Positions 8,813 through 61,152 of a DNA stretch of 64,000 nt are shown here, piece after piece; within the stretch, counting starts at the first letter, position 1; each line of letters starts with the position of its first letter. Source of the stretch: an uncultured Candidatus Berkelbacteria bacterium (lineage in GTDB: Bacteria; Patescibacteriota; UBA1384; UBA12157); contig CAIRFN010000006.1 of NCBI GenBank assembly GCA_903877885.1, forward strand, positions 156,332 through 220,331, written 5' to 3'. A program made the position numbers and the translations under genes. A model generated the notes under the pieces. The model was not told the DNA's origin, did not search any database, and saw nothing but the letters and a program-made list of their open reading frames with translations.

Positions 8813-8889
8813 GGGCGGTTAGCTCAGCTGGTAGAGCGCCTCGTTGACGTCGAGGAGGTTCAGAGGTTCGAACCCTCTACCGCCCACCA
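8813..8889 (+). tRNA. tRNA-Val (anticodon GAC), CCA encoded
   Basis: Acceptor GGGCGGT/ACCGCCC, D arm GCTC..GAGC, anticodon stem CCTCG/CGAGG with loop TTGACGT, T arm with TTCGAAC loop, then ACCA. Confidence 0.85.
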
Positions 8890-8980
8890 TGTTTTTTTGT
8901 ACCTGAATTAGCTCAGTGGTAACCAGATTTCGGCTGCCGCCTCAATCAAGATTGGCTATTACCAAATCGTCTTCGACGAA

Positions 8981-9056
8981 AGAGCGCCTCGTTGACGTTA
9001 TGAATGATAGAAGTTCGAACCTCTATGACGCAAAGCGTCTGTTATACCGCCCACCA
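8981..9056 (+). pseudogene. Degenerate partial duplicate of the 3' two-thirds of tRNA-Val
   Basis: agagcgcctcgttgacgt (18 nt identical to tRNA-Val) ... gttcgaacctcta ... taccgcccacca, with insertions; no 5' acceptor strand. Confidence 0.35.
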
Positions 9057-9063
9057 TGAAAAA

Positions 9064-9086
9064 AACAGGTCTAAAGCCTGTTTTTT
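9064..9086. terminator. Small bidirectional terminator hairpin
   Basis: A-run, acagg-tctaaag-cctgt, T-run. Confidence 0.35.
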
Positions 9087-9140
9087 TGTATCCAAAATAT
9101 ATGATATGCTAGAAAAAACAGCTAAATAAAAAGGAATTAA

Positions 9141-10051: not shown

Positions 10052-10423
10052 TTATTTAGAACCAAATAAACGTTTCCAAAAACCAGGTTTTCTAACAACA
10101 TCTTCTTTTGGTGGTACGCCAACATAACCGATTTCGGTTACTTTGGGTTGCTCTTCTGCTGGTGTTCGATCGTAATGGCTAAAATCGGCTGAAAGCACAT
10201 TGCCATTCGCGTCGGTCATTGGTTTCTGCTCTGGCGCTATTGGTACAGCCATTCGATATTCTGGTTTTGGTTGTTTTGACGGATCTGGTACTTCTAAATG
10301 AGTTGGTCTAGAATTATTTTGAATTGTAGCTTCATCGCTTCCTACATTTTTATTTTCGTCTGTTCCGCTTTGACCTTCTTGTCGAGCAATTTCTTCCATA
10401 TCCATTCCCATGTTTTGTTCCAT
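10052..10423 (-). CDS. Hypothetical low-complexity (Pro/Glu/Gln-rich) protein
   Basis: 123-aa ORF with a disordered-type composition and an amphipathic C-terminus. Confidence 0.35.
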   Translation of the reverse strand: MEQNMGMDMEEIARQEGQSGTDENKNVGSDEATIQNNSRPTHLEVPDPSKQPKPEYRMAVPIAPEQKPMTDANGNVLSADFSHYDRTPAEEQPKVTEIGYVGVPPKEDVVRKPGFWKRLFGSK

Positions 10424-10479
10424 AAAACTCCTTTTTAATTTATTTAACTAAGTATATTTTAGTTCAATCATCATAAAAT

Positions 10480-10513
10480 CACAAATAAAAAACCGCCAAA
10501 TCAATTGGCGGCA
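10480..10513 (-). terminator. Intrinsic terminator overlapping the stop codon of the HTH protein gene
   Basis: ccgccaa-atca-ttggcgg hairpin followed on the minus strand by a U-run. Confidence 0.5.
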
Positions 10514-11187
10514 GAGTTTTGACTAATTCTTTTAATCAGTTTGGAAATTGTGGTTAAATGGACTAAAGTTGATTTAACAATTTTTTCCGCGGTAGCTTGT
10601 TTTTTACCGGCCAAACTAATAATTCTGGTGGCAAAAAGATTGATTAAATCTTTTGTTCTTTCTAAACTTTCGATGGCTGTTTCCTCGATTGATTTTTCCT
10701 TTCCGACAGAAATTATATCTTCCGGCGGGTTCAAATCGTAAATGGCATCGAGAATTTGATCTAAATCTTTTTGATCAAGTTTAGGCAAATGAACCAAGAT
10801 CGATTCTAATGTTATTGGTTCGACTACCAAAACTGTTGGCAATAAAATCGGCGCTTCAATTTCTACTACAGTTTTTCTACCAAGACGAGCCAAGGCAATT
10901 TCTTCGTTTTGTCGATTAATCTCTTTCTCTCGTTCGTAACAATCGGTTGGAATCAAACTTCGGTCAAGTTTAACTAAATCCACTAATTTTTCCATCCATT
11001 CGATTTTGACTAATCGGCCGGATTTCATCATTGAAACCGTACTTAACGGCACTTCGGCTTCGGCGCATAATTCTCTCTGTGCGAAACCTAGAGTTTTTCC
11101 TTTCTCGGCAATTAGTTCTGCCAGTTTCGCCAGCGTCAATGATTTGCCTTCAACCATTGTTTTCTCCTTATCGAATCGGACCACCAA
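10501..11187 (-). CDS. Hypothetical protein with an N-terminal XRE-like HTH
   Basis: LTLAKLAELIAEKGKTLGFAQRELCAEAEVPLSTVSMMKSGR is HTH-like; the rest is uncharacterised. Confidence 0.45.
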   Translation of the reverse strand: MVVRFDKEKTMVEGKSLTLAKLAELIAEKGKTLGFAQRELCAEAEVPLSTVSMMKSGRLVKIEWMEKLVDLVKLDRSLIPTDCYEREKEINRQNEEIALARLGRKTVVEIEAPILLPTVLVVEPITLESILVHLPKLDQKDLDQILDAIYDLNPPEDIISVGKEKSIEETAIESLERTKDLINLFATRIISLAGKKQATAEKIVKSTLVHLTTISKLIKRISQNSAAN

Positions 11188-11222
11188 TATTTTAGCTGGT
11201 TAATAGTCATTTGTCAAGACAA

Positions 11223-11507
11223 TTATGATAAATAGGCTATTAACCGATAAGCTATAAGAACAAGAAATCCGGCGCCAAGTAACAGGCTGAAGCATAGATG
11301 TATATTTCTCGTAAATTTTACACTAGTGTAGCCTAGCACAAAAGCGAGAAATAAACAGATCCAAATACTGATACTCCAGCTATCCAAACAAGCTTTATCT
11401 ATGACGACTTCAAGTTCAGCCAAGATAAAGGTGGAAACCGCGGCCAGGTGGTAGGTTTGATGTTCGTTGTCAGGTTTGGCATTTTCAATTGTCAAATCTT
11501 CAAACAA
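11223..11507 (-). CDS. Hypothetical small membrane protein
   Basis: 94 aa with two hydrophobic segments. Confidence 0.3.
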   Translation of the reverse strand: MFEDLTIENAKPDNEHQTYHLAAVSTFILAELEVVIDKACLDSWSISIWICLFLAFVLGYTSVKFTRNIHLCFSLLLGAGFLVLIAYRLIAYLS

Positions 11508-11559
11508 GCAAAGCCTCCTTGAAAGTTGGTTGCGCTCGCTTCCATTTTACCGAACCAAC

Positions 11560-11618
11560 CTTTTTTATGTCAACAAAAACAGGTCAGAAATATCAGTTCT
11601 TGATATCTTCGACCTGTT
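11560..11618 (-). terminator. Intrinsic terminator immediately 3' of tmRNA
   Basis: aacaggtc ... gacctgtt long hairpin followed (on the minus strand) by UUUUUG. Confidence 0.6.
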
Positions 11619-11623
11619 TTTTG

Positions 11624-11945
11624 TGGTGGAGCTGACGAGAATTGCACTCGTGTCCAAAAAGATTTTGACACAATTCTTTAAAAACAAGTTTAAATTTGTC
11701 TTCGTTTTTTCTTCTATCGACTAAGACAACCTAGATAGATATAGACCAAATTGTGACGCCCGTTCTCTCCGGTTGGTCATCAAAGAGACAGACGCTGCTG
11801 TAAAGCTTAAGCTATTAGGCTAGAGCTAAGGCAGGTGTAAACGTATTTTTTGCGTTTAACATTTTGCCATTTGATTTAACGAGTCAAAATGACGTGCTCG
11901 ACTTGAAATTGTGGGTTGATCTTCCTGTCGAATCTAAACAGCCCC
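11624..11945 (-). ncRNA. ssrA: tmRNA (SsrA), one-piece; predicted tag AKNTFTPALALA
   Basis: The minus-strand 5' end GGGGCUGUUUAGAUUCGACAGG matches the tmRNA acceptor strand plus the UUCGAC motif. The 3' end GGACACGAG-UGCAAUU-CUCGU-CAGCUCC-A-CCA parallels the E. coli 3' end, including the G3:U70 pair. The internal frame GCA AAA AAU ACG UUU ACA CCU GCC UUA GCU CUA GCC UAA UAG sits at plus 11812-11853. Confidence 0.85.
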
Positions 11946-11955
11946 ATTGACTAGA

Positions 11956-11984
11956 ACTATATCATAATTTTAACAAAAAATCAA
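11956..11984 (-). promoter_or_regulatory. sigma70-like promoter for ssrA (TTGATT-17-TATAGT on the minus strand)
   Basis: The reverse complement of 11956-11984 reads TTGATT, a 17-nt spacer, then TATAGT, about 10 nt upstream of the mature 5' G. Confidence 0.45.
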
Positions 11985-12077
11985 TCATTTGACTTGCATT
12001 TTCAATTGCTAAAATCACTAAAACGATTTTTGTTAGATGTGGATAAGTTTCAGATTAACAGGTTCGGGGTCGAACCC

Positions 12078-12105
12078 TTGACAAAGTTGACAGATCTGGT
12101 ACAAT
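12078..12105 (+). promoter_or_regulatory. sigma70-like promoter (TTGACA-16-TACAAT) upstream of the CHAP hydrolase leader
   Basis: TTGACA at 12078-12083 and TACAAT at 12100-12105. Confidence 0.45.
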
Positions 12106-12184
12106 TAAAAACGTGTTAACTAAAAAAAGCCGACAAAACGTTGGCGTTGGTTAACGCAAAGAGATCAGTAGTTGACTTACAGTA

Positions 12185-13051: not shown

Positions 13052-13468
13052 TTAATTTAGTTCTCTGGCGGCGGTTCGGTTTAAATCGCGTTTTTTGAGT
13101 TCTTGCCGATGGTCATAGATTTTTTTGCCGCGAGCTAAGGCAATTTCTAATTTGGCATGGCCTTTTTTAATATAGAGCGCTAGAGGAATGAGCGATAAGC
13201 CTTTTTGTTGGGTTTTACCGATCAGCGAACGAATCTGACTTTTGTGAAGTAATAATTTGCGGCTGCGTTCCGGCTCTTTGACGAGAGAAATATGCATATT
13301 TAAAACCCAAGCCTCATTATCCGAAACACGACAAAAAGTGCCATTCAGATTGGCTCGATGAGCCCGAATCGCTTTAATCTCTTCGCCAGTCAAAACTAGT
13401 CCGGCTTCAAACTTTTCCAGAATTTCATATTCCAGATTGGCTAATTTGTTTTGAGCTATATATGACAT
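13052..13468 (-). CDS. smpB: SsrA-binding protein
   Basis: 138 aa with an SmpB-like N-terminal region (LVLTGEEIKAIR) and a basic C-terminal tail (GKKIYDHRQELKKRD). Confidence 0.9.
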   Translation of the reverse strand: MSYIAQNKLANLEYEILEKFEAGLVLTGEEIKAIRAHRANLNGTFCRVSDNEAWVLNMHISLVKEPERSRKLLLHKSQIRSLIGKTQQKGLSLIPLALYIKKGHAKLEIALARGKKIYDHRQELKKRDLNRTAARELN

Positions 13469-14037: not shown

Positions 14038-14706
14038 ATGAGAAAAGATCCGTTGGTTAATGGACAATGTTATCATATATTCAGTCGAAGCATTGCTAAA
14101 TATATTATTTTTAATAATAGCAGTGACTTTGAGAGGTTGATTGAGCTCATCGATCTTTATCGATTTAATGATTTTTTTTATAAATACTCAGGTTTTCTTG
14201 AGCTAAATGCTTTTTTTAGATTAAAATATGTAGAAGGTTTGAAACTAACGAGTTCAAAATCAGTTGAAATAATTTCTTATTCAATCATGCCGACTCATAT
14301 TCATTTAACACTTAAACAATTAGTGGATGGTGGGATTTCGAAATATATGGCAAAGATTTTGAATAGTTATACTCGATATTTTAATATTCAACATCAGAGA
14401 AAAGGCCCGTTGTGGGAGGGAAAATTTCAAAGCGTCTTAGTCAATGACGACGATCAGTTATTGCATTTAACCAGATATCATCATCTTAATCCTGTTTCGG
14501 CAGGGCTAGTTACTAAACCAGAAGATTGGACTTACTCGTCTTATAAAGAATATCTTGATGATCTAGAGGTAGATGGCTTTTGTGATTTTAAGGATCTAAT
14601 TGTTTTCAATCGTGACCAATATAAAAAATTTGTTGAAGACCGAATTGATTATCAAAAGAAATTATCAGAAATAAAACATTTAATATTTAACGATTATAGT
14701 GGTTAA
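14038..14706 (+). CDS. REP-associated tyrosine transposase (RAYT) / IS200-like HuH transposase, COG1943 family
   Basis: N-terminal YHIFSRSIAKYIIF (compare YHVxxRG..IF), HuH motif MPTHIHLTL, and a C-terminal LTRYHHLNPVSAGLV..PEDWTYSSY that resembles RayT DYIYINPVKHGWV..SDWPFSTF, including the catalytic Tyr. It is flanked by REP copies. Confidence 0.7.
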   Translation: MRKDPLVNGQCYHIFSRSIAKYIIFNNSSDFERLIELIDLYRFNDFFYKYSGFLELNAFFRLKYVEGLKLTSSKSVEIISYSIMPTHIHLTLKQLVDGGISKYMAKILNSYTRYFNIQHQRKGPLWEGKFQSVLVNDDDQLLHLTRYHHLNPVSAGLVTKPEDWTYSSYKEYLDDLEVDGFCDFKDLIVFNRDQYKKFVEDRIDYQKKLSEIKHLIFNDYSG

Positions 14707-25150: not shown

Positions 25151-26503
25151 CTATTTTATTTTTCCAAACCATTTTGGCTTGGTCCCGTGGAAGCCTTTGA
25201 TAAAATCGGTAAAGCTCATGATCTGTTTTCCTTCGGGTTGAACCACATCTAAAACAAGTTTGTTATCGTCCATATGAGTTTGATGGATAATCAATCTTTT
25301 ATCATCAATAAAGGTGTAAGATCCTGGCCAAGGAAAATAGGCGCGAATTTGCGCGTCGATTTTGGCAGTTGGTTTTGTCCAATCAATTTCGCCGTCTTCT
25401 TTTTTAAATTTTTTTGTTCGGCTAGCTAAATTTTCATCTTGATCCATTGGATGAAGTTTATTATGGATTAGTCGAGGCAGTGAATGATAAAGCAATTTAA
25501 CGGCGGCGACAGCCAAGCGTTTTTCCAAACTTAAGCTATTATCATCTTCATCAATATCAATTTTGATTTGTGAAAGGACTGGCCCTTTATCAATTTCTGG
25601 CACCATTTTAATAAGTGACACGCCAGTTTCAACATCATTATTTAATATTGCAGTTTGAATTGGGGTGGCACCGCGGTATTTTGGTAAAAGTGATGGATGC
25701 AAATTAAGGGCGCCGAACTTGGCGACAGTTAAAATGTCATTTTTTAGAATTTGGCCGAAGTCGCTTAAAATAATTATATCTGGATCTTGAGCTTTAATTT
25801 TTTCTAAATCCAAATTAATGTTTTCGGTTTCTAGAATTGGTAAATCAAACCTAATCGCTTCTTCGTGTACGTTCGTGAACTTAGTTGCTTTATCTCGTCC
25901 GGCTGGTTTGGCTTTTTCAGTTACAACCAGCGGGATGTTTAAACCCAAAGAAATTAAGCCGCGCAAAATAATCGCTGCAAATTCGCCGGAGCCAACGAAA
26001 ACAATTTTCTTTGATTTTAAATCTGGAAAATCGCTTAAATATTTTTCTCGAACTCGGTCAGTAAACATAATACCGTTTAAATGATCGATTTCGTGTTGCA
26101 AAATGCGGGCTAAAAAACCTTTGGGCGCAATCTTTTTAGTTCGACCCATCTCATCTTGATATTTAACTTTAAGTTTTTTGCTTCGCTCGGTTTCCAATTC
26201 AATTGGTGGAATTGAAAGACAACCTTCATCAGCCAAATCAGTTTCATTGGAATATTCAATAATTTCCGGATTGACAAAACAAGTCAAAGGAATAATTCCC
26301 CGATCTTCATAAGGACATTCGACAATTAAAACTCGATTATCAATGCCAAGTTGATTGGCAGCTAAACCAACGCCGCCTTCGCCCCGTAAAGCTTTGGTCA
26401 TAGCTTTAATTTGATCAATTAAAGATTCGTTAAAATCGACCACTTTTTGAGTTGTCTTTTTTAAGATTTTATTTGGAACTGTGACTATTTTTAAGTTTTT
26501 CAA
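25151..26503 (-). CDS. Fused peptide deformylase / methionyl-tRNA formyltransferase (Def-Fmt)
   Basis: The N-terminal half has PDF motifs GVGLAANQLG, EGCLSIP and QHEIDHLNG. The C-terminal half is Fmt (KIVFVGSGEFA ... NLHPSLLPKYRGATPIQTAILN). A single 450-aa ORF. Confidence 0.85.
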   Translation of the reverse strand: MKNLKIVTVPNKILKKTTQKVVDFNESLIDQIKAMTKALRGEGGVGLAANQLGIDNRVLIVECPYEDRGIIPLTCFVNPEIIEYSNETDLADEGCLSIPPIELETERSKKLKVKYQDEMGRTKKIAPKGFLARILQHEIDHLNGIMFTDRVREKYLSDFPDLKSKKIVFVGSGEFAAIILRGLISLGLNIPLVVTEKAKPAGRDKATKFTNVHEEAIRFDLPILETENINLDLEKIKAQDPDIIILSDFGQILKNDILTVAKFGALNLHPSLLPKYRGATPIQTAILNNDVETGVSLIKMVPEIDKGPVLSQIKIDIDEDDNSLSLEKRLAVAAVKLLYHSLPRLIHNKLHPMDQDENLASRTKKFKKEDGEIDWTKPTAKIDAQIRAYFPWPGSYTFIDDKRLIIHQTHMDDNKLVLDVVQPEGKQIMSFTDFIKGFHGTKPKWFGKIK

Positions 26504-42321: not shown

Positions 42322-42657
42322 TACGAAAAAAGCCTTAAGTAATCGATAAGCCAGGTTCTGTTTAGGCAGCATCTATCTTCGCGTCGGACCCAGTGGACAT
42401 CTGTCGAGCAGACATTGATGATAATGGGCCATCCGACTTGCACCGAGCTAGGCTTGCCACAGACATACATTACTGTATGAACGCGTGAGCTCTTACCTCA
42501 CGATTTCAACCTTACCTCCGCGGTTAGCGGATCGGCGGTATATTTTCTGTTGCGCTGTTCTCGAACCTCACGGCCCGCTCATTTTCACGAGCGCTGTACT
42601 CTTTGGTGCCTGGACTTTCCTCACTCTTGCGAGCGGAACTGCCTCGATTACTTAAGG
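42322..42657 (-). ncRNA. rnpB: RNase P RNA
   Basis: The minus-strand reading contains GAGGAAAGUCCAGGCACC (the conserved GGAAAGUCCGGGCUCC region) and ACAGAACCUGGCUUAUCG (the conserved 3' region). A 13-bp P1 helix CCUUAAGUAAUCG/CGAUUACUUAAGG is followed by a U-run. Confidence 0.8.
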
Positions 42658-42727
42658 CGGATAAATCATATCACAATTTCCTTGAAAAATCAAGATAAAA
42701 GTGGTAGAATATAAAAGTACTAATATT

Positions 42728-42798
42728 CCCGGATCGTCTAATGGCAGGACGGCTGGTTTTGGTCCAGTAAGTTGGGGTTCGAATCCCTATCCGGGAGC
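42728..42798 (+). tRNA. tRNA-Gln (anticodon UUG)
   Basis: Acceptor TCCCGGA/TCCGGGA, anticodon stem GCTGG/CCAGT with loop TTTTGGT, T arm TGGGG-TTCGAAT-CCCTA. Confidence 0.7.
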
Positions 42799-57933: not shown

Positions 57934-60900
57934 ATGCCAGCACAACAAGAATATACCGCTAAAAATATTACTGTTTTAGAGGGACTCGAACCGGTTCGAA
58001 AACGACCGGGCATGTATATTGGGGGAACCGGACTCGAAGGTTTACACCATTTGATTTGGGAAATTGTGGATAACTCGTTCGATGAGGCAATGGCCGGATA
58101 CGCCAAACAAATCGATGTTGAGCTCTTGCCAGATAATAAAGTTCGCGTGATCGATGATGGTCGTGGCATTCCAGTGGATAAACATCCAACGACCGGAAAA
58201 TCCGCTTTGGAAACTGTCTACACTGTGCTTCACGCTGGTGGTAAATTTGGTGAAGGTGGTGGTTATAAAGTTTCCGGTGGTCTTCATGGTGTCGGCGCTT
58301 CGGTTGTAAACGCGCTTTCAACTCATTTGCGCGCTGAAGTTTATCGTGATGGTCATATTTATGCTCAAGAATATGCCAGAGGAAAAGTTTTGGGAGATGT
58401 CAAAATCGTGGGTGAAACTGATAAAGATAAACATGGTACAGCCATTACTTTTCAACCTGATCCGGAAATTTTTCCTAATACCACTTTTTCACTAGATACG
58501 ATTTTAAATCATTTGCGTCAGCAAGCTTATTTAACCAAAAAAATTCATTTGCGCGTGGTTGATCATCGGGAAAATCCTGATGAGCCAGGTTATAATTTTT
58601 ATTTTGAAGGCGGCGTGGCCAGTTTTGTTCGTCATATCAATAAAAATCGTGTGGCACTCAATGAACCACCGTTTTATTTTGAAAAAGAAGTGGCTGACAA
58701 TACGGTTGAAGTTTCGATTGCTTATACCGATGATTACAATGAACACGTTTACACCTTTGCGAACAATATTTATACAGTTGAAGGTGGAACCCATTTGACT
58801 GGTTTTCGCACCGCTTTGACTCGCGCCATCAATGATTACGTTAAAAAATCGGAAATGAATAAAGGTGGAGATTTAACTTTTTCTGGTGAAGATGTGCGTG
58901 AAGGTTTAACGGCTGTGGTTTCGGTAAAATTACCAAATCCGCAATTTGAAGGTCAGACCAAAGGAAAGCTCGGCAACCCGGAAATGAAAAATATGGTTGA
59001 GCAGGTGACTTATGAAGGTCTGTCTTATTATTTTGAAGAACATCCACAAGATGCCCGAAAGATTATTGAAAAATGCGCTTTGTCGATGCGTGCTCGGGTG
59101 GCTGCCCGCGCCGCGCGCGATACCGTGATTCGAAAAGGCGCTCTGGAGGGTATGACTTTGCCAGGTAAGCTAGCAGATTGTTCCAATAAAGATTCCGCTA
59201 ACTCCGAACTTTACATTGTCGAGGGTGATTCCGCCGGCGGATGTTGGGATGGAAATACTAAAATTGCCTTAGCCGATGGTCGCAATCTTTCATTTATTGA
59301 TTTAGTCAAAGAAGATAAACAAGGTAAACAGAATTTTTGCTACACGATGCAGAAAAATGGTCATATTGGTGTTGCTCCAATTTTGAGTCCAAGAATAACC
59401 AAACGAAATACCGAAGTTATCAAGGTTACTTTGGACAATAATGAAGAACTTATTTGTACCCCAGACCATTTGTTTATGTTAAGAGATGGATCATATTTAC
59501 AGGCAAAAGATTTAGACAGCAGTATGAGCTTAATGCCTTTAAGGAAAAAAACATCTCAATTGGGTGGACGAATTACGATTTCTGGTTATGAAATGGTCTT
59601 AAATCCTCAAAACCATAAATGGGTTTTTACACATTTACTAGCCGATAATTATAATCTTGAAAATAACGTTTATTTATCTGAAGATGGTAGTCATAAACAT
59701 CATCAGGATTTTAATAAATTAAATAATAATCCCGATAATATTATCCGTATGACTCCAACTGACCATCTTGATTTGCATCGATCACATGCTAATAAAACTT
59801 TGCATACTCCAGAAACTATTGCTAAATGCAATGCAATTAAAAAGACGGAAGCTTATCGAGAAAAAATCAGCGCCACGATTAAAAATAATTATGGCCAAAT
59901 GTTAAGCGAAAAAGCTAAAAAACAATGGAGCGATCCAGAATATAAAGAGTTTATGCTTCAAAAATATATGGCTTTTTTCAACCAAAATAAAGAATTTCGA
60001 ATACGAATTCTAAACACTATAAACGAAGCTCAAAAACAATATTGGGCTAAGCCGGAAAACCGAGCTAAACAAGCTGAAAAAGTTAAAGAATATTTTACAA
60101 CTCACCCGGAATTAAAAGCGATTTTAGCCGAGAAAGCCAAAACAGAATGGCAAGACGCGGAGTTATTGAATTGGCGTCGAGAAAAAACTAAAGAACAGTG
60201 GAATCAAGATTTTCGAGCTAAACGAAAAGTTGCCTATAACCAAGTTTATTTAAATACCGGTTTAAGTTTTGCTAAAAAAGTTCTGGAAAAAAACGGTCAA
60301 GTCGACTTATATAACCAAGAAAGATCGTCGCTACCAAAAAGAAATCCAAATCTTGTCAAAATGGAAACGCTGATTTCACGATTCTTTAATGGCAAAAAAG
60401 AAGAATTTGTTGAGGCAGTGGCCAATTTCAATCATAAAATTAAATCAATTGAAAAAATCAATCAAAAAATTGATGTCTATGATATCGAAGTTCCAAACAC
60501 GCATAACTTCGCCTTAGCCAGTGGTATTTTTGTACACAATAGTGCCAAACAGGGTCGGGACAGAAAATTCCAGGCAATATTGCCACTTCGCGGTAAGATT
60601 TTAAACGTCGAACGCGCCCGTATGGATAAAATGCTATCTAACGAGGAAATTAAGAATTTGATTATTGCGATGGGTACCAGCATTGGCGATACTCTGAATA
60701 TGGATAAAATGCGTTATGGTCGCGTCATCATTATGACTGATGCTGATGTTGACGGCGCCCATATTCGAACCTTATTATTAACTCTTTTCTATCGGCATTT
60801 TCAAGAAATCATTACCGGTGGACATTTGTTTATTGCCCAACCGCCGTTATTCTTGGTCCAAAAAGGTAAGACCAAACAATGGGCTTACAATGAAGGTCAG

Positions 60901-61152
60901 ATGGAACAAGCGGTTAAAAAGATGGGTAAAGATGGGGTTAATGTTCAGCGTTACAAAGGTTTGGGAGAAATGAACCCGGAGCAATTGTGGGACACCACGA
61001 TGAATCCGGAAAATCGAGTTTTACTTAAGGTTTCGGCTCATGATGCCGAGCGCGCTGATGAAATTTTTTCCATGTTGATGGGCGACGAAGTAGCTCCCAG
61101 AAAACGATTTATCCAAACTCATGCTAAAAATGTTAAAAACCTAGATGTATAG
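57934..61152 (+). CDS. gyrB: DNA gyrase subunit B, interrupted by an in-frame intein
   Basis: GHKL ATPase, TOPRIM and C-terminal GyrB motifs. The host sequence EGDSAGG | SAKQGRDR is split by a 433-aa insert; the extein totals 639 aa. Confidence 0.95.
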   Translation: MPAQQEYTAKNITVLEGLEPVRKRPGMYIGGTGLEGLHHLIWEIVDNSFDEAMAGYAKQIDVELLPDNKVRVIDDGRGIPVDKHPTTGKSALETVYTVLHAGGKFGEGGGYKVSGGLHGVGASVVNALSTHLRAEVYRDGHIYAQEYARGKVLGDVKIVGETDKDKHGTAITFQPDPEIFPNTTFSLDTILNHLRQQAYLTKKIHLRVVDHRENPDEPGYNFYFEGGVASFVRHINKNRVALNEPPFYFEKEVADNTVEVSIAYTDDYNEHVYTFANNIYTVEGGTHLTGFRTALTRAINDYVKKSEMNKGGDLTFSGEDVREGLTAVVSVKLPNPQFEGQTKGKLGNPEMKNMVEQVTYEGLSYYFEEHPQDARKIIEKCALSMRARVAARAARDTVIRKGALEGMTLPGKLADCSNKDSANSELYIVEGDSAGGCWDGNTKIALADGRNLSFIDLVKEDKQGKQNFCYTMQKNGHIGVAPILSPRITKRNTEVIKVTLDNNEELICTPDHLFMLRDGSYLQAKDLDSSMSLMPLRKKTSQLGGRITISGYEMVLNPQNHKWVFTHLLADNYNLENNVYLSEDGSHKHHQDFNKLNNNPDNIIRMTPTDHLDLHRSHANKTLHTPETIAKCNAIKKTEAYREKISATIKNNYGQMLSEKAKKQWSDPEYKEFMLQKYMAFFNQNKEFRIRILNTINEAQKQYWAKPENRAKQAEKVKEYFTTHPELKAILAEKAKTEWQDAELLNWRREKTKEQWNQDFRAKRKVAYNQVYLNTGLSFAKKVLEKNGQVDLYNQERSSLPKRNPNLVKMETLISRFFNGKKEEFVEAVANFNHKIKSIEKINQKIDVYDIEVPNTHNFALASGIFVHNSAKQGRDRKFQAILPLRGKILNVERARMDKMLSNEEIKNLIIAMGTSIGDTLNMDKMRYGRVIIMTDADVDGAHIRTLLLTLFYRHFQEIITGGHLFIAQPPLFLVQKGKTKQWAYNEGQMEQAVKKMGKDGVNVQRYKGLGEMNPEQLWDTTMNPENRVLLKVSAHDAERADEIFSMLMGDEVAPRKRFIQTHAKNVKNLDV
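59242..60540 (+). mobile_element. GyrB intein (Ssp GyrB-type) with an HNH-family homing endonuclease region
   Basis: Begins with Cys (CWDGNTKIALADGRNLSFIDL) and ends ...NTHNFALASGIFVHN followed by Ser. The internal SHKHHQDF..NPDNIIRMTPTDHLDLHRSH is HNH-like, followed by KA..EW helical repeats. It resembles the Synechocystis GyrB intein blocks (VIKVTLDN..ICTPDH..MLRDGSY). Confidence 0.85.

Follow-up and report, generated by a model that had tools for sequence, protein, structure and literature searches.

A short one-piece tmRNA gene with three pseudoknots near smpB in a Berkelbacteria-like bacterium

The ssrA locus

The window analysed here, i.e. the whole stretch of 64,000 nucleotides under study, carries on its minus strand a gene of 322 nt (ssrA, 11624–11945) that encodes a one-piece tmRNA, as indicated by ARAGORN, by the Rfam covariance model RF00023 and by covariation in 19 homologues. 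A preliminary description made from the sequence had placed a tmRNA on this strand and had proposed the first two tools as a check; both call a tmRNA and give identical coordinates. The RF00023 match reaches 123.7 bits for a gathering score of 47 (E 6.9e-48) and spans model positions 1–374 of 374 with no truncation, and ARAGORN reads the tag AKNTFTPALALA followed by two stop codons. The minus strand of 11624–11945 starts with GGGGCUGUUUAGAUUCGACAGG and ends with GGACACGAGUGCAAUUCUCGUCAGCUCCACCA, as quoted in the preliminary description, its 3' end being GGACACGAG-UGCAAUU-CUCGU-CAGCUCC-ACCA. RF00023 is the best Rfam family and the class assigned by ARAGORN is standard, not permuted. Indeed, the gene is colinear and does not display the permuted layout, in which the 3' tRNA-like half lies 5' of the other half (RF01849, RF01850, RF04321).

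The gene lies within 664 nt left uncalled between the flanking genes in the public gene calls (L001 6298–6961, i.e. window 11508–12171). This interval had been described as a 650-nt gap free of ORFs; no gene is called across the 664 nt, but mechanical ORFs overlap the gap, for example one of 85 aa at 11467–11724 (+).

The gene smpB, which encodes the protein (138 aa) that tmRNA requires as its partner, is located at 13052–13468 (-), 1.1 kb upstream of ssrA. Its assignment, already made in the preliminary description with a distance of about 1 kb, is borne out by Pfam (SmpB, PF01668, E 6.9e-49); the protein is intact and the GKKxYDxR tail motif is conserved. This SmpB is 69–91% identical to those of Candidatus Berkelbacteria, which are its closest named relatives, and an identical SmpB is encoded by at least 18 public metagenome contigs, including a 116-kb ENA scaffold that shows the gene order of the window. 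A gene encoding a CHAP-domain protein, on the opposite strand, separates smpB from ssrA. The neighbours in the window are core chromosomal genes, such as pyrH, the genes of uridine kinase, dUTPase and dCMP deaminase, thyA, folA and glyA, to which are added further core genes (the RNase Y gene, priA, uvrA, gyrB and def-fmt).

Homologous tmRNAs

An SmpB alignment, used to scan species-representative genomes, led to eleven Berkelbacteria-like loci, eight of which carry a tmRNA gene 1.3–3 kb from smpB. Three relatives that possess smpB (L007, L012 and L016) harbour no tmRNA within 6 kb, and therefore the linkage between smpB and ssrA is common but not universal. Fourteen more tmRNAs were recovered by scanning metagenomes with the clade-invariant 16-mer ACAATTTCAAGTCGAG and then with nhmmer. 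After removal of duplicates, 19 distinct tmRNA sequences of 302–349 nt, originating from Berkelbacteria-like genomes and metagenomes, were available for comparison. The tmRNA of L013 (3974–4322 (-)) owes its 349 nt to an extra stem-loop of about 35 nt located in helix 5 after the stop codon. ARAGORN missed or mis-framed three of the eight relatives detected by Rfam (the tmRNAs of L010 and L011 were missed and the tag of L006 was read in a wrong frame), and the tags were therefore re-read from the alignment.

The tag reading frame and its reader

The tag reading frame (11812–11853 (-)), recognised by ARAGORN and in the alignment, starts with a GCA resume codon at 11851–11853 and reads GCA AAA AAU ACG UUU ACA CCU GCC UUA GCU CUA GCC UAA UAG. 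The internal frame proposed in the preliminary description, which encodes a tag-like peptide ending in ALA followed by a double stop, and the predicted tag itself thus agree with the peptide given by ARAGORN. Furthermore, the context of the resume codon, another point proposed for verification, is conserved, UAAAC or UAAGC being kept upstream of this codon in the homologues. The frame is open in all 19 homologues, where it comprises 10 or 12 codons followed by UAA, and its nucleotides vary. The tags of the clade end in PALA, PAFA, FATA, PALALA, PALAIA, PALAVA or PALAFA and follow the pattern A-[LFTIV]-A.

In three members of the clade (L011 8179–8493 (-), L157 14072–14386 (+) and L102 3810–4123 (-)), the codon AAC (Asn) replaces GCN at the aligned resume codon. 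In these three sequences, only the frame starting with AAC yields the conserved end ...PALA-x-A.

None of the 19 tags of the clade ends in LAA. In E. coli, ClpX binds the C-terminal LAA of the tag and ClpA recognises its C-terminal ALA (PMC3968760). As the tag examined here ends in ALA, not in the LAA of E. coli that is read by ClpX, its degradation may proceed differently. The 17 ORFs of the window scanned with Pfam include no Clp, Lon or FtsH protease.

These features make it conceivable, although rather doubtful, that the tmRNA is real but that its tag is no degron for ClpXP, the end A-[L/F/T/I/V]-A being read by a protease of the Lon or FtsH type, or the system acting mainly in rescue with little targeted proteolysis. 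The tags of Mycoplasma, which are bacteria with small genomes, display A-F-A-like ends instead of L-A-A and are much longer than the Berkelbacteria tag. Gur and Sauer reportedly found in 2008 that mycoplasma tags ending in AFA are degraded by Lon. The likeness between the tags of Mycoplasma and Berkelbacteria lies in the A-x-A-like end, which is not L-A-A. Such a reader would also fit the ends of the 19 tags, all of the A-x-A form with a hydrophobic residue or Thr at the penultimate position and never LAA, the end bound by ClpX in E. coli (PMC3968760). However, ALA at the C-terminus of the E. coli tag is recognised by ClpA (PMC3968760), and the tags of the clade keep a terminal Ala and an Ala-rich hydrophobic end, which is compatible with a reader of the Clp type.

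Genomic context of ssrA

The order smpB–CHAP gene–ssrA recurs in many relatives, and a gene of tRNA-Val(GAC) is found 1.4–3.6 kb from ssrA in several of them. The segment that adjoins the tmRNA 3' end on its downstream side (10052–11507 (-)) contains three ORFs of 123, 228 and 94 aa; they show no Pfam match and no tblastn match in the locus of any relative. This segment is best read as a lineage-specific variable stretch abutting ssrA, with neither integrase nor att repeat.

This stretch bears on the question of whether ssrA belongs to a prophage or a genomic island, as a carried copy or as a gene that integration has rebuilt, instead of to the core chromosome. The tmRNA genes are common integration sites (PMC11915505), many contigs from viral collections contain tmRNA genes, and the three ORFs lack both a Pfam match and a homologue in the loci of the relatives. 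However, no integrase adjoins ssrA, the tmRNA 3' end is not repeated in the window (one match at up to 3 mismatches), and no clear break in composition is seen. Furthermore, ssrA is full length, and the synteny with smpB and the CHAP gene recurs in relatives, as does the nearby tRNA-Val(GAC) gene. An origin in such an element is thus very improbable.

Several other features of the window deserve description. Just downstream of the tRNA-Val(GAC) gene (8813–8889), a degenerate partial second copy of tRNA-Val is found at 8961–9090 (+). It matches tRNA-Val at 18 of 18 nt over 8981–8998 (D arm, 3' side, through anticodon arm, 5' side), at 12 of 13 nt of the T arm over 9009–9021 and at 14 of 14 nt of the 3' acceptor end over 9045–9058; it also contains an insertion of about 20 nt and precedes a terminator-like hairpin. 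This copy is called by neither ARAGORN nor Rfam and looks like a tRNA pseudogene or an integration relic. A 222-aa ORF located at 14038–14706 (+), flanked by the dUTPase gene and by a 90-aa ORF that adjoins smpB, shows a weak match to IS200-like Y1 transposases (E 2.3e-6) and has no homologue in the loci of the relatives. The gyrB ORF (57934–61152 (+), 1072 aa) is interrupted by an intein, the Pfam Intein_splicing domain covering aa 453–869 (E 1.3e-16) between the GyrB and Toprim domains. A single ORF of 450 aa (25151–26503 (-)) fuses a peptide deformylase (aa 4–153) with a methionyl-tRNA formyltransferase (aa 165–414). Finally, the window carries a bacterial class A RNase P RNA at 42331–42655 (-) (154 bits), which comprises 325 nt for a model of 367 positions, several segments being deleted, and which adjoins a tRNA-Gln gene (42727–42798).

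Secondary structure of the tmRNA

The structure, including the pseudoknots, was written as a set of 75 pairs and counted on the alignment of the 19 sequences. Standard pairs occupy 97.4% of the cells (75 pairs, 19 sequences), a proportion that falls to at most 49.5% when the 3' partners are slid by 1–3 columns. Changes on both sides of the pair, i.e. compensatory changes, affect 40 of the 75 pairs, and the covariation score observed was reached by none of 500 shuffles. A minimum-energy fold of the whole RNA computed from the single sequence (z = -3.1) was also considered; as it does not reproduce the real architecture, it was discarded in favour of the comparative structure.

The acceptor stem with G3:U70, the T arm and the encoded CCA proposed in the preliminary description are all recovered. 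The 5' strand of the acceptor stem, GGGGCUG (11939–11945 (-)), pairs with 11628–11634 and provides G3 of the G3:U70 alanine identity pair. Its 3' strand, CAGCUCC, is followed by the discriminator A and an encoded CCA, as seen in the sequence, the RF00023 match and the alignment (11624–11634 (-)). In this 7-bp stem, the third pair is G:U in 19 of 19 homologues, in keeping with the tRNA-Ala-like acceptor previously described, and one pair shows a compensatory change between GC and AU. The ACCA announced at the 3' end of the minus strand is present, and CCA is encoded in 17 of the 19 clade members. The T arm (11635–11651 (-)) combines a 5-bp stem, ACGAG/CUCGU, four of the five pairs of which are compensatory and which is paired in 100% of the cells, with the 7-nt loop UGCAAUU (11640–11646).

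The tRNA-like domain is prolonged by the long helix 2, the 5' strand of which (11901–11927 (-)) pairs with the 3' strand (11655–11689 (-)). The 21 pairs of this helix are distributed over three segments that are paired in 96–100% of the cells, and covariation in the 19 sequences includes five compensatory pairs. PK1 (11866–11900 (-)) sits directly upstream of the resume codon; its first stem, CGAG/CUCG, is invariant, and its second one, GUCAUU/AAUGGC, has five of six pairs compensatory. Helix 5 (11795–11834 (-)) is a hairpin that includes the last part of the tag frame together with its stop codons; when this segment is folded separately for each sequence, the stop codon is found in or beside the apical loop in 19 of 19 cases. 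PK2 (11744–11794 (-)) possesses eight compensatory pairs in stem 1 and, in stem 2 (GACCAA/UUGGUC), five compensatory pairs out of six, with 100% of the cells paired. In PK3 (11698–11740 (-)), all eight pairs of stem 1 and four of the five pairs of stem 2 (GUCUU/AAGAC) are compensatory.

The preliminary description had expected PK1 to PK4 to be recovered by folding. PK1, PK2 and PK3 are supported by covariation but PK4 is absent: in the Rfam alignment, 54 model positions are cut to 2 nt, and PK3 leads directly to the 3' strand of helix 2. Therefore, this tmRNA displays three pseudoknots and no PK4. Since PK2–PK4 are replaceable or dispensable, and since active tmRNAs with fewer pseudoknots exist (PMC3968760), this absence does not disqualify the RNA as a tmRNA.

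Expression signals

A promoter scan identified a putative sigma-70-type promoter with an extended -10 box at 11956–11984 (-) (TTGATT, 17 nt, TG-n-TATAGT). It matches the consensus at 9 of 12 positions, in addition to the TG extension, and its end lies 10 nt upstream of G1, the mature 5' G. A pair of boxes resembling TTGAyT and TGnTATAAT is found at an equal distance from G1 in almost all of the 18 relatives.

Directly 3' of the CCA, folding reveals an intrinsic-terminator-like hairpin followed by a U-tract (11570–11621 (-)), and the strong terminator claimed at this place is thus found. Its free energy is -23.6 kcal/mol (z = -6.9), and none of 200 shuffled sequences folds as well. A simple scan for terminator patterns returned nothing near ssrA, a null result that was set aside because direct folding shows the hairpin. 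A hairpin and a U-tract occupy the equivalent site in most relatives for which enough downstream sequence is available.

The D-loop/T-loop elbow

The stemless D-loop UUUAGAUUCGA (11928–11938 (-)) displays in the alignment the dinucleotide A-G at the positions that correspond to G18 and G19 of tRNAs and that are G-G in most tmRNAs. All 19 clade members carry these two nucleotides, A11 and G12, for a Rfam consensus of G-G. The T-loop UGCAAUU carries a G at the position of U55/pseudouridine 55 of tRNAs, G55 and C56 being likewise invariant in 19 of 19 sequences. In the tmRNA of E. coli, this position is occupied by a U that is converted to pseudouridine (PMC3968760). In the elbow of tRNAs, U55 contacts G18 and C56 pairs with G19 (PMC7912444); the A of the D-loop and the G of the T-loop would thus be partners in the elbow. 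The whole clade therefore retains the equivalents of C56 and G19 and has A and G as equivalents of G18 and U55. By comparison, all 26 other one-piece tmRNAs from the fetched loci, two of which come from other CPR groups, combine a GG D-loop with a UUC T-loop.

The distribution of this double variant was examined in contigs from viral collections (L206–L445), in which at least 120 matches to tmRNA 3' ends carrying a UGC loop were obtained, a control scan with a UUC loop also giving at least 120 matches. Among the UGC matches listed, most are permuted tmRNAs of the alpha or beta type and three are one-piece; ARAGORN, applied to the UGC set only, finds a tmRNA in most contigs, and among the matches listed these are mostly permuted. 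Among the unique sequences of the matches listed, counting those with a locatable 5' acceptor strand and D-loop, the D-loop is A-G in 35 of 53 tmRNAs with a UGC loop and in none of 52 with a UUC loop (Fisher p ~1e-14 for the matches listed, a value that ignores relatedness). Almost all the remaining UGC cases among the matches listed have an A followed by GG, for which the register is ambiguous. Furthermore, the tmRNA of Caulobacter crescentus carries a G where that of E. coli has U342 (PMC1168896), and the single U-to-G change of the T-loop is thus already in the literature for this bacterium. The idea that a UGC T-loop with an AG D-loop is confined to Berkelbacteria (19/19 versus 0/26) was considered and is ruled out by the matches in viral contigs and by PMC1168896.

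The preliminary description had noted that UGCAAUU departs from the consensus UUCGAAU. This departure is real but is no anomaly of this copy, as it is shared by the 19 members of the clade and by other lineages. Since it is fixed in the clade and found in many permuted tmRNAs and in Caulobacter, the UGC T-loop is, at the level of sequence, to be regarded as one of the two changes of a paired variant that recurs; it would be neither a defect nor evidence against function. The occurrence of the A-G D-loop with UGC only suggests a replaced elbow contact. Tentatively, the elbow of the clade might be held by a contact between the A of the D-loop and the G of the T-loop that replaces the near-universal contact of G18 with pseudouridine 55, the double change having arisen repeatedly as the covariation of a tertiary pair. 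These repeated origins may include the Berkelbacteria clade, a few other one-piece forms and many permuted forms. If true, the T-loop would be free of pseudouridine and the interface with SmpB would perhaps be adapted.

The deviation of two normally conserved elbow positions, together with the missing PK4, could also be expected if the stretch were a pseudogene that has decayed or a tRNA-like remnant with only a resemblance to a tmRNA. However, the elbow deviations are fixed in 19 of 19 sequences, the helices keep their pairing by compensatory changes, the tag frame is open, the expression signals are conserved, and the full-length match scores 2.6 times the gathering threshold. Such a pseudogene or remnant, to which hardly any probability can be granted, is excluded by the covariation together with the full-length match and the conserved frame. 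There is a negligible probability that a small protein, such as the 85-aa product of 11467–11724 (+), is encoded in the gap in place of an RNA: mechanical ORFs do overlap the region, but public gene calls skip it and the substitutions among homologues keep the base pairs, not the plus-strand frame.

Comparison with known systems and proposed mechanism

The Berkelbacteria-like tmRNA shares with that of E. coli, and with RF00023, a colinear layout, an acceptor with G3:U70, the discriminator A and CCA, a stemless D-loop, a T arm made of a 5-bp stem and a 7-nt loop, a long helix 2, PK1 before the resume codon, the GCA resume codon, a short Ala-rich tag, a stop in helix 5, PK2, PK3 and the SmpB partner. 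However, it comprises 322 nt versus 363 nt in E. coli and lacks PK4, the pseudouridine position of its T-loop is a G instead of a U, in its D-loop an A replaces the first of the two G of GG, and its tag ends in ALA and not in LAA. The SmpB encoded in the window comprises 138 aa, versus 160 aa in E. coli (PMC3968760).

The two-piece permuted tmRNAs of Alpha- and Betaproteobacteria, including that of Caulobacter crescentus, share the T-loop G that corresponds to U342 of E. coli (PMC1168896) and, among the matches listed, often show the D-loop A-G of the Berkelbacteria clade. The tmRNA of Caulobacter also has fewer pseudoknots, pk4 being absent (PMC1168896) as in the Berkelbacteria-like tmRNA. 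However, permuted genes give rise to two RNA pieces, whereas in the Berkelbacteria-like gene the layout is colinear and the match extends along the entire one-piece model.

With tRNA-Ala, the tmRNA has in common the G3:U70 pair, A73, the CCA end, the T arm and processing by RNase P. In contrast to this tRNA, it possesses neither an anticodon arm nor a D stem, it carries an internal frame and pseudoknots, and its elbow bases are A and G instead of G18 and U55.

The following steps are drawn from the established pathway of trans-translation. The transcription of ssrA would start from its own extended -10 promoter and end at the hairpin that follows the encoded CCA. RNase P, the RNA subunit of which is also encoded in the window, would trim a leader of a few nucleotides. 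The tRNA-like domain would be charged with alanine by virtue of G3:U70 and bound by SmpB at the D-loop/T-loop elbow, and, where a ribosome has stalled on a broken mRNA, EF-Tu would bring the complex to its empty A site. Translation would resume at GCA, append AKNTFTPALALA and stop at UAA UAG in helix 5, after which the tagged protein would be passed to a protease.

The gene, the fold, the conserved frame, the expression signals and the partner gene are observations of this analysis; we infer charging, tagging and the choice of the protease that reads the tag from homology. We consider, with high confidence, that 11624–11945 (-) is the housekeeping ssrA of an uncultured Berkelbacteria-like (Patescibacteria/CPR) bacterium, the product of this gene being a standard one-piece tmRNA with SmpB as its working partner.

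Significance

The finding is correct but ordinary, as the tmRNA family is already well known and this copy is detected by default with standard tools. The identification of ssrA fills a gap in the gene map of the contig. It also indicates that a bacterium with a reduced genome keeps the tmRNA–SmpB system of ribosome rescue, as expected, since a catalogue published in 2025 already lists 5,275 tmRNA genes from 6,765 Patescibacteria genomes (PMC11915505 supplement). Three pseudoknots, an A/G elbow and A-x-A tags are known kinds of variation.

The added value is therefore descriptive: the Berkelbacteria-type tmRNA is short (302–349 nt) and combines three pseudoknots, a fixed A/G elbow and A-x-A tags. 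These features could guide annotation models, which could gain from them because ARAGORN failed to find or to frame correctly some of the relatives that Rfam detected. Finally, the A/G elbow raises a small structural question about the contact of the D-loop with the T-loop.
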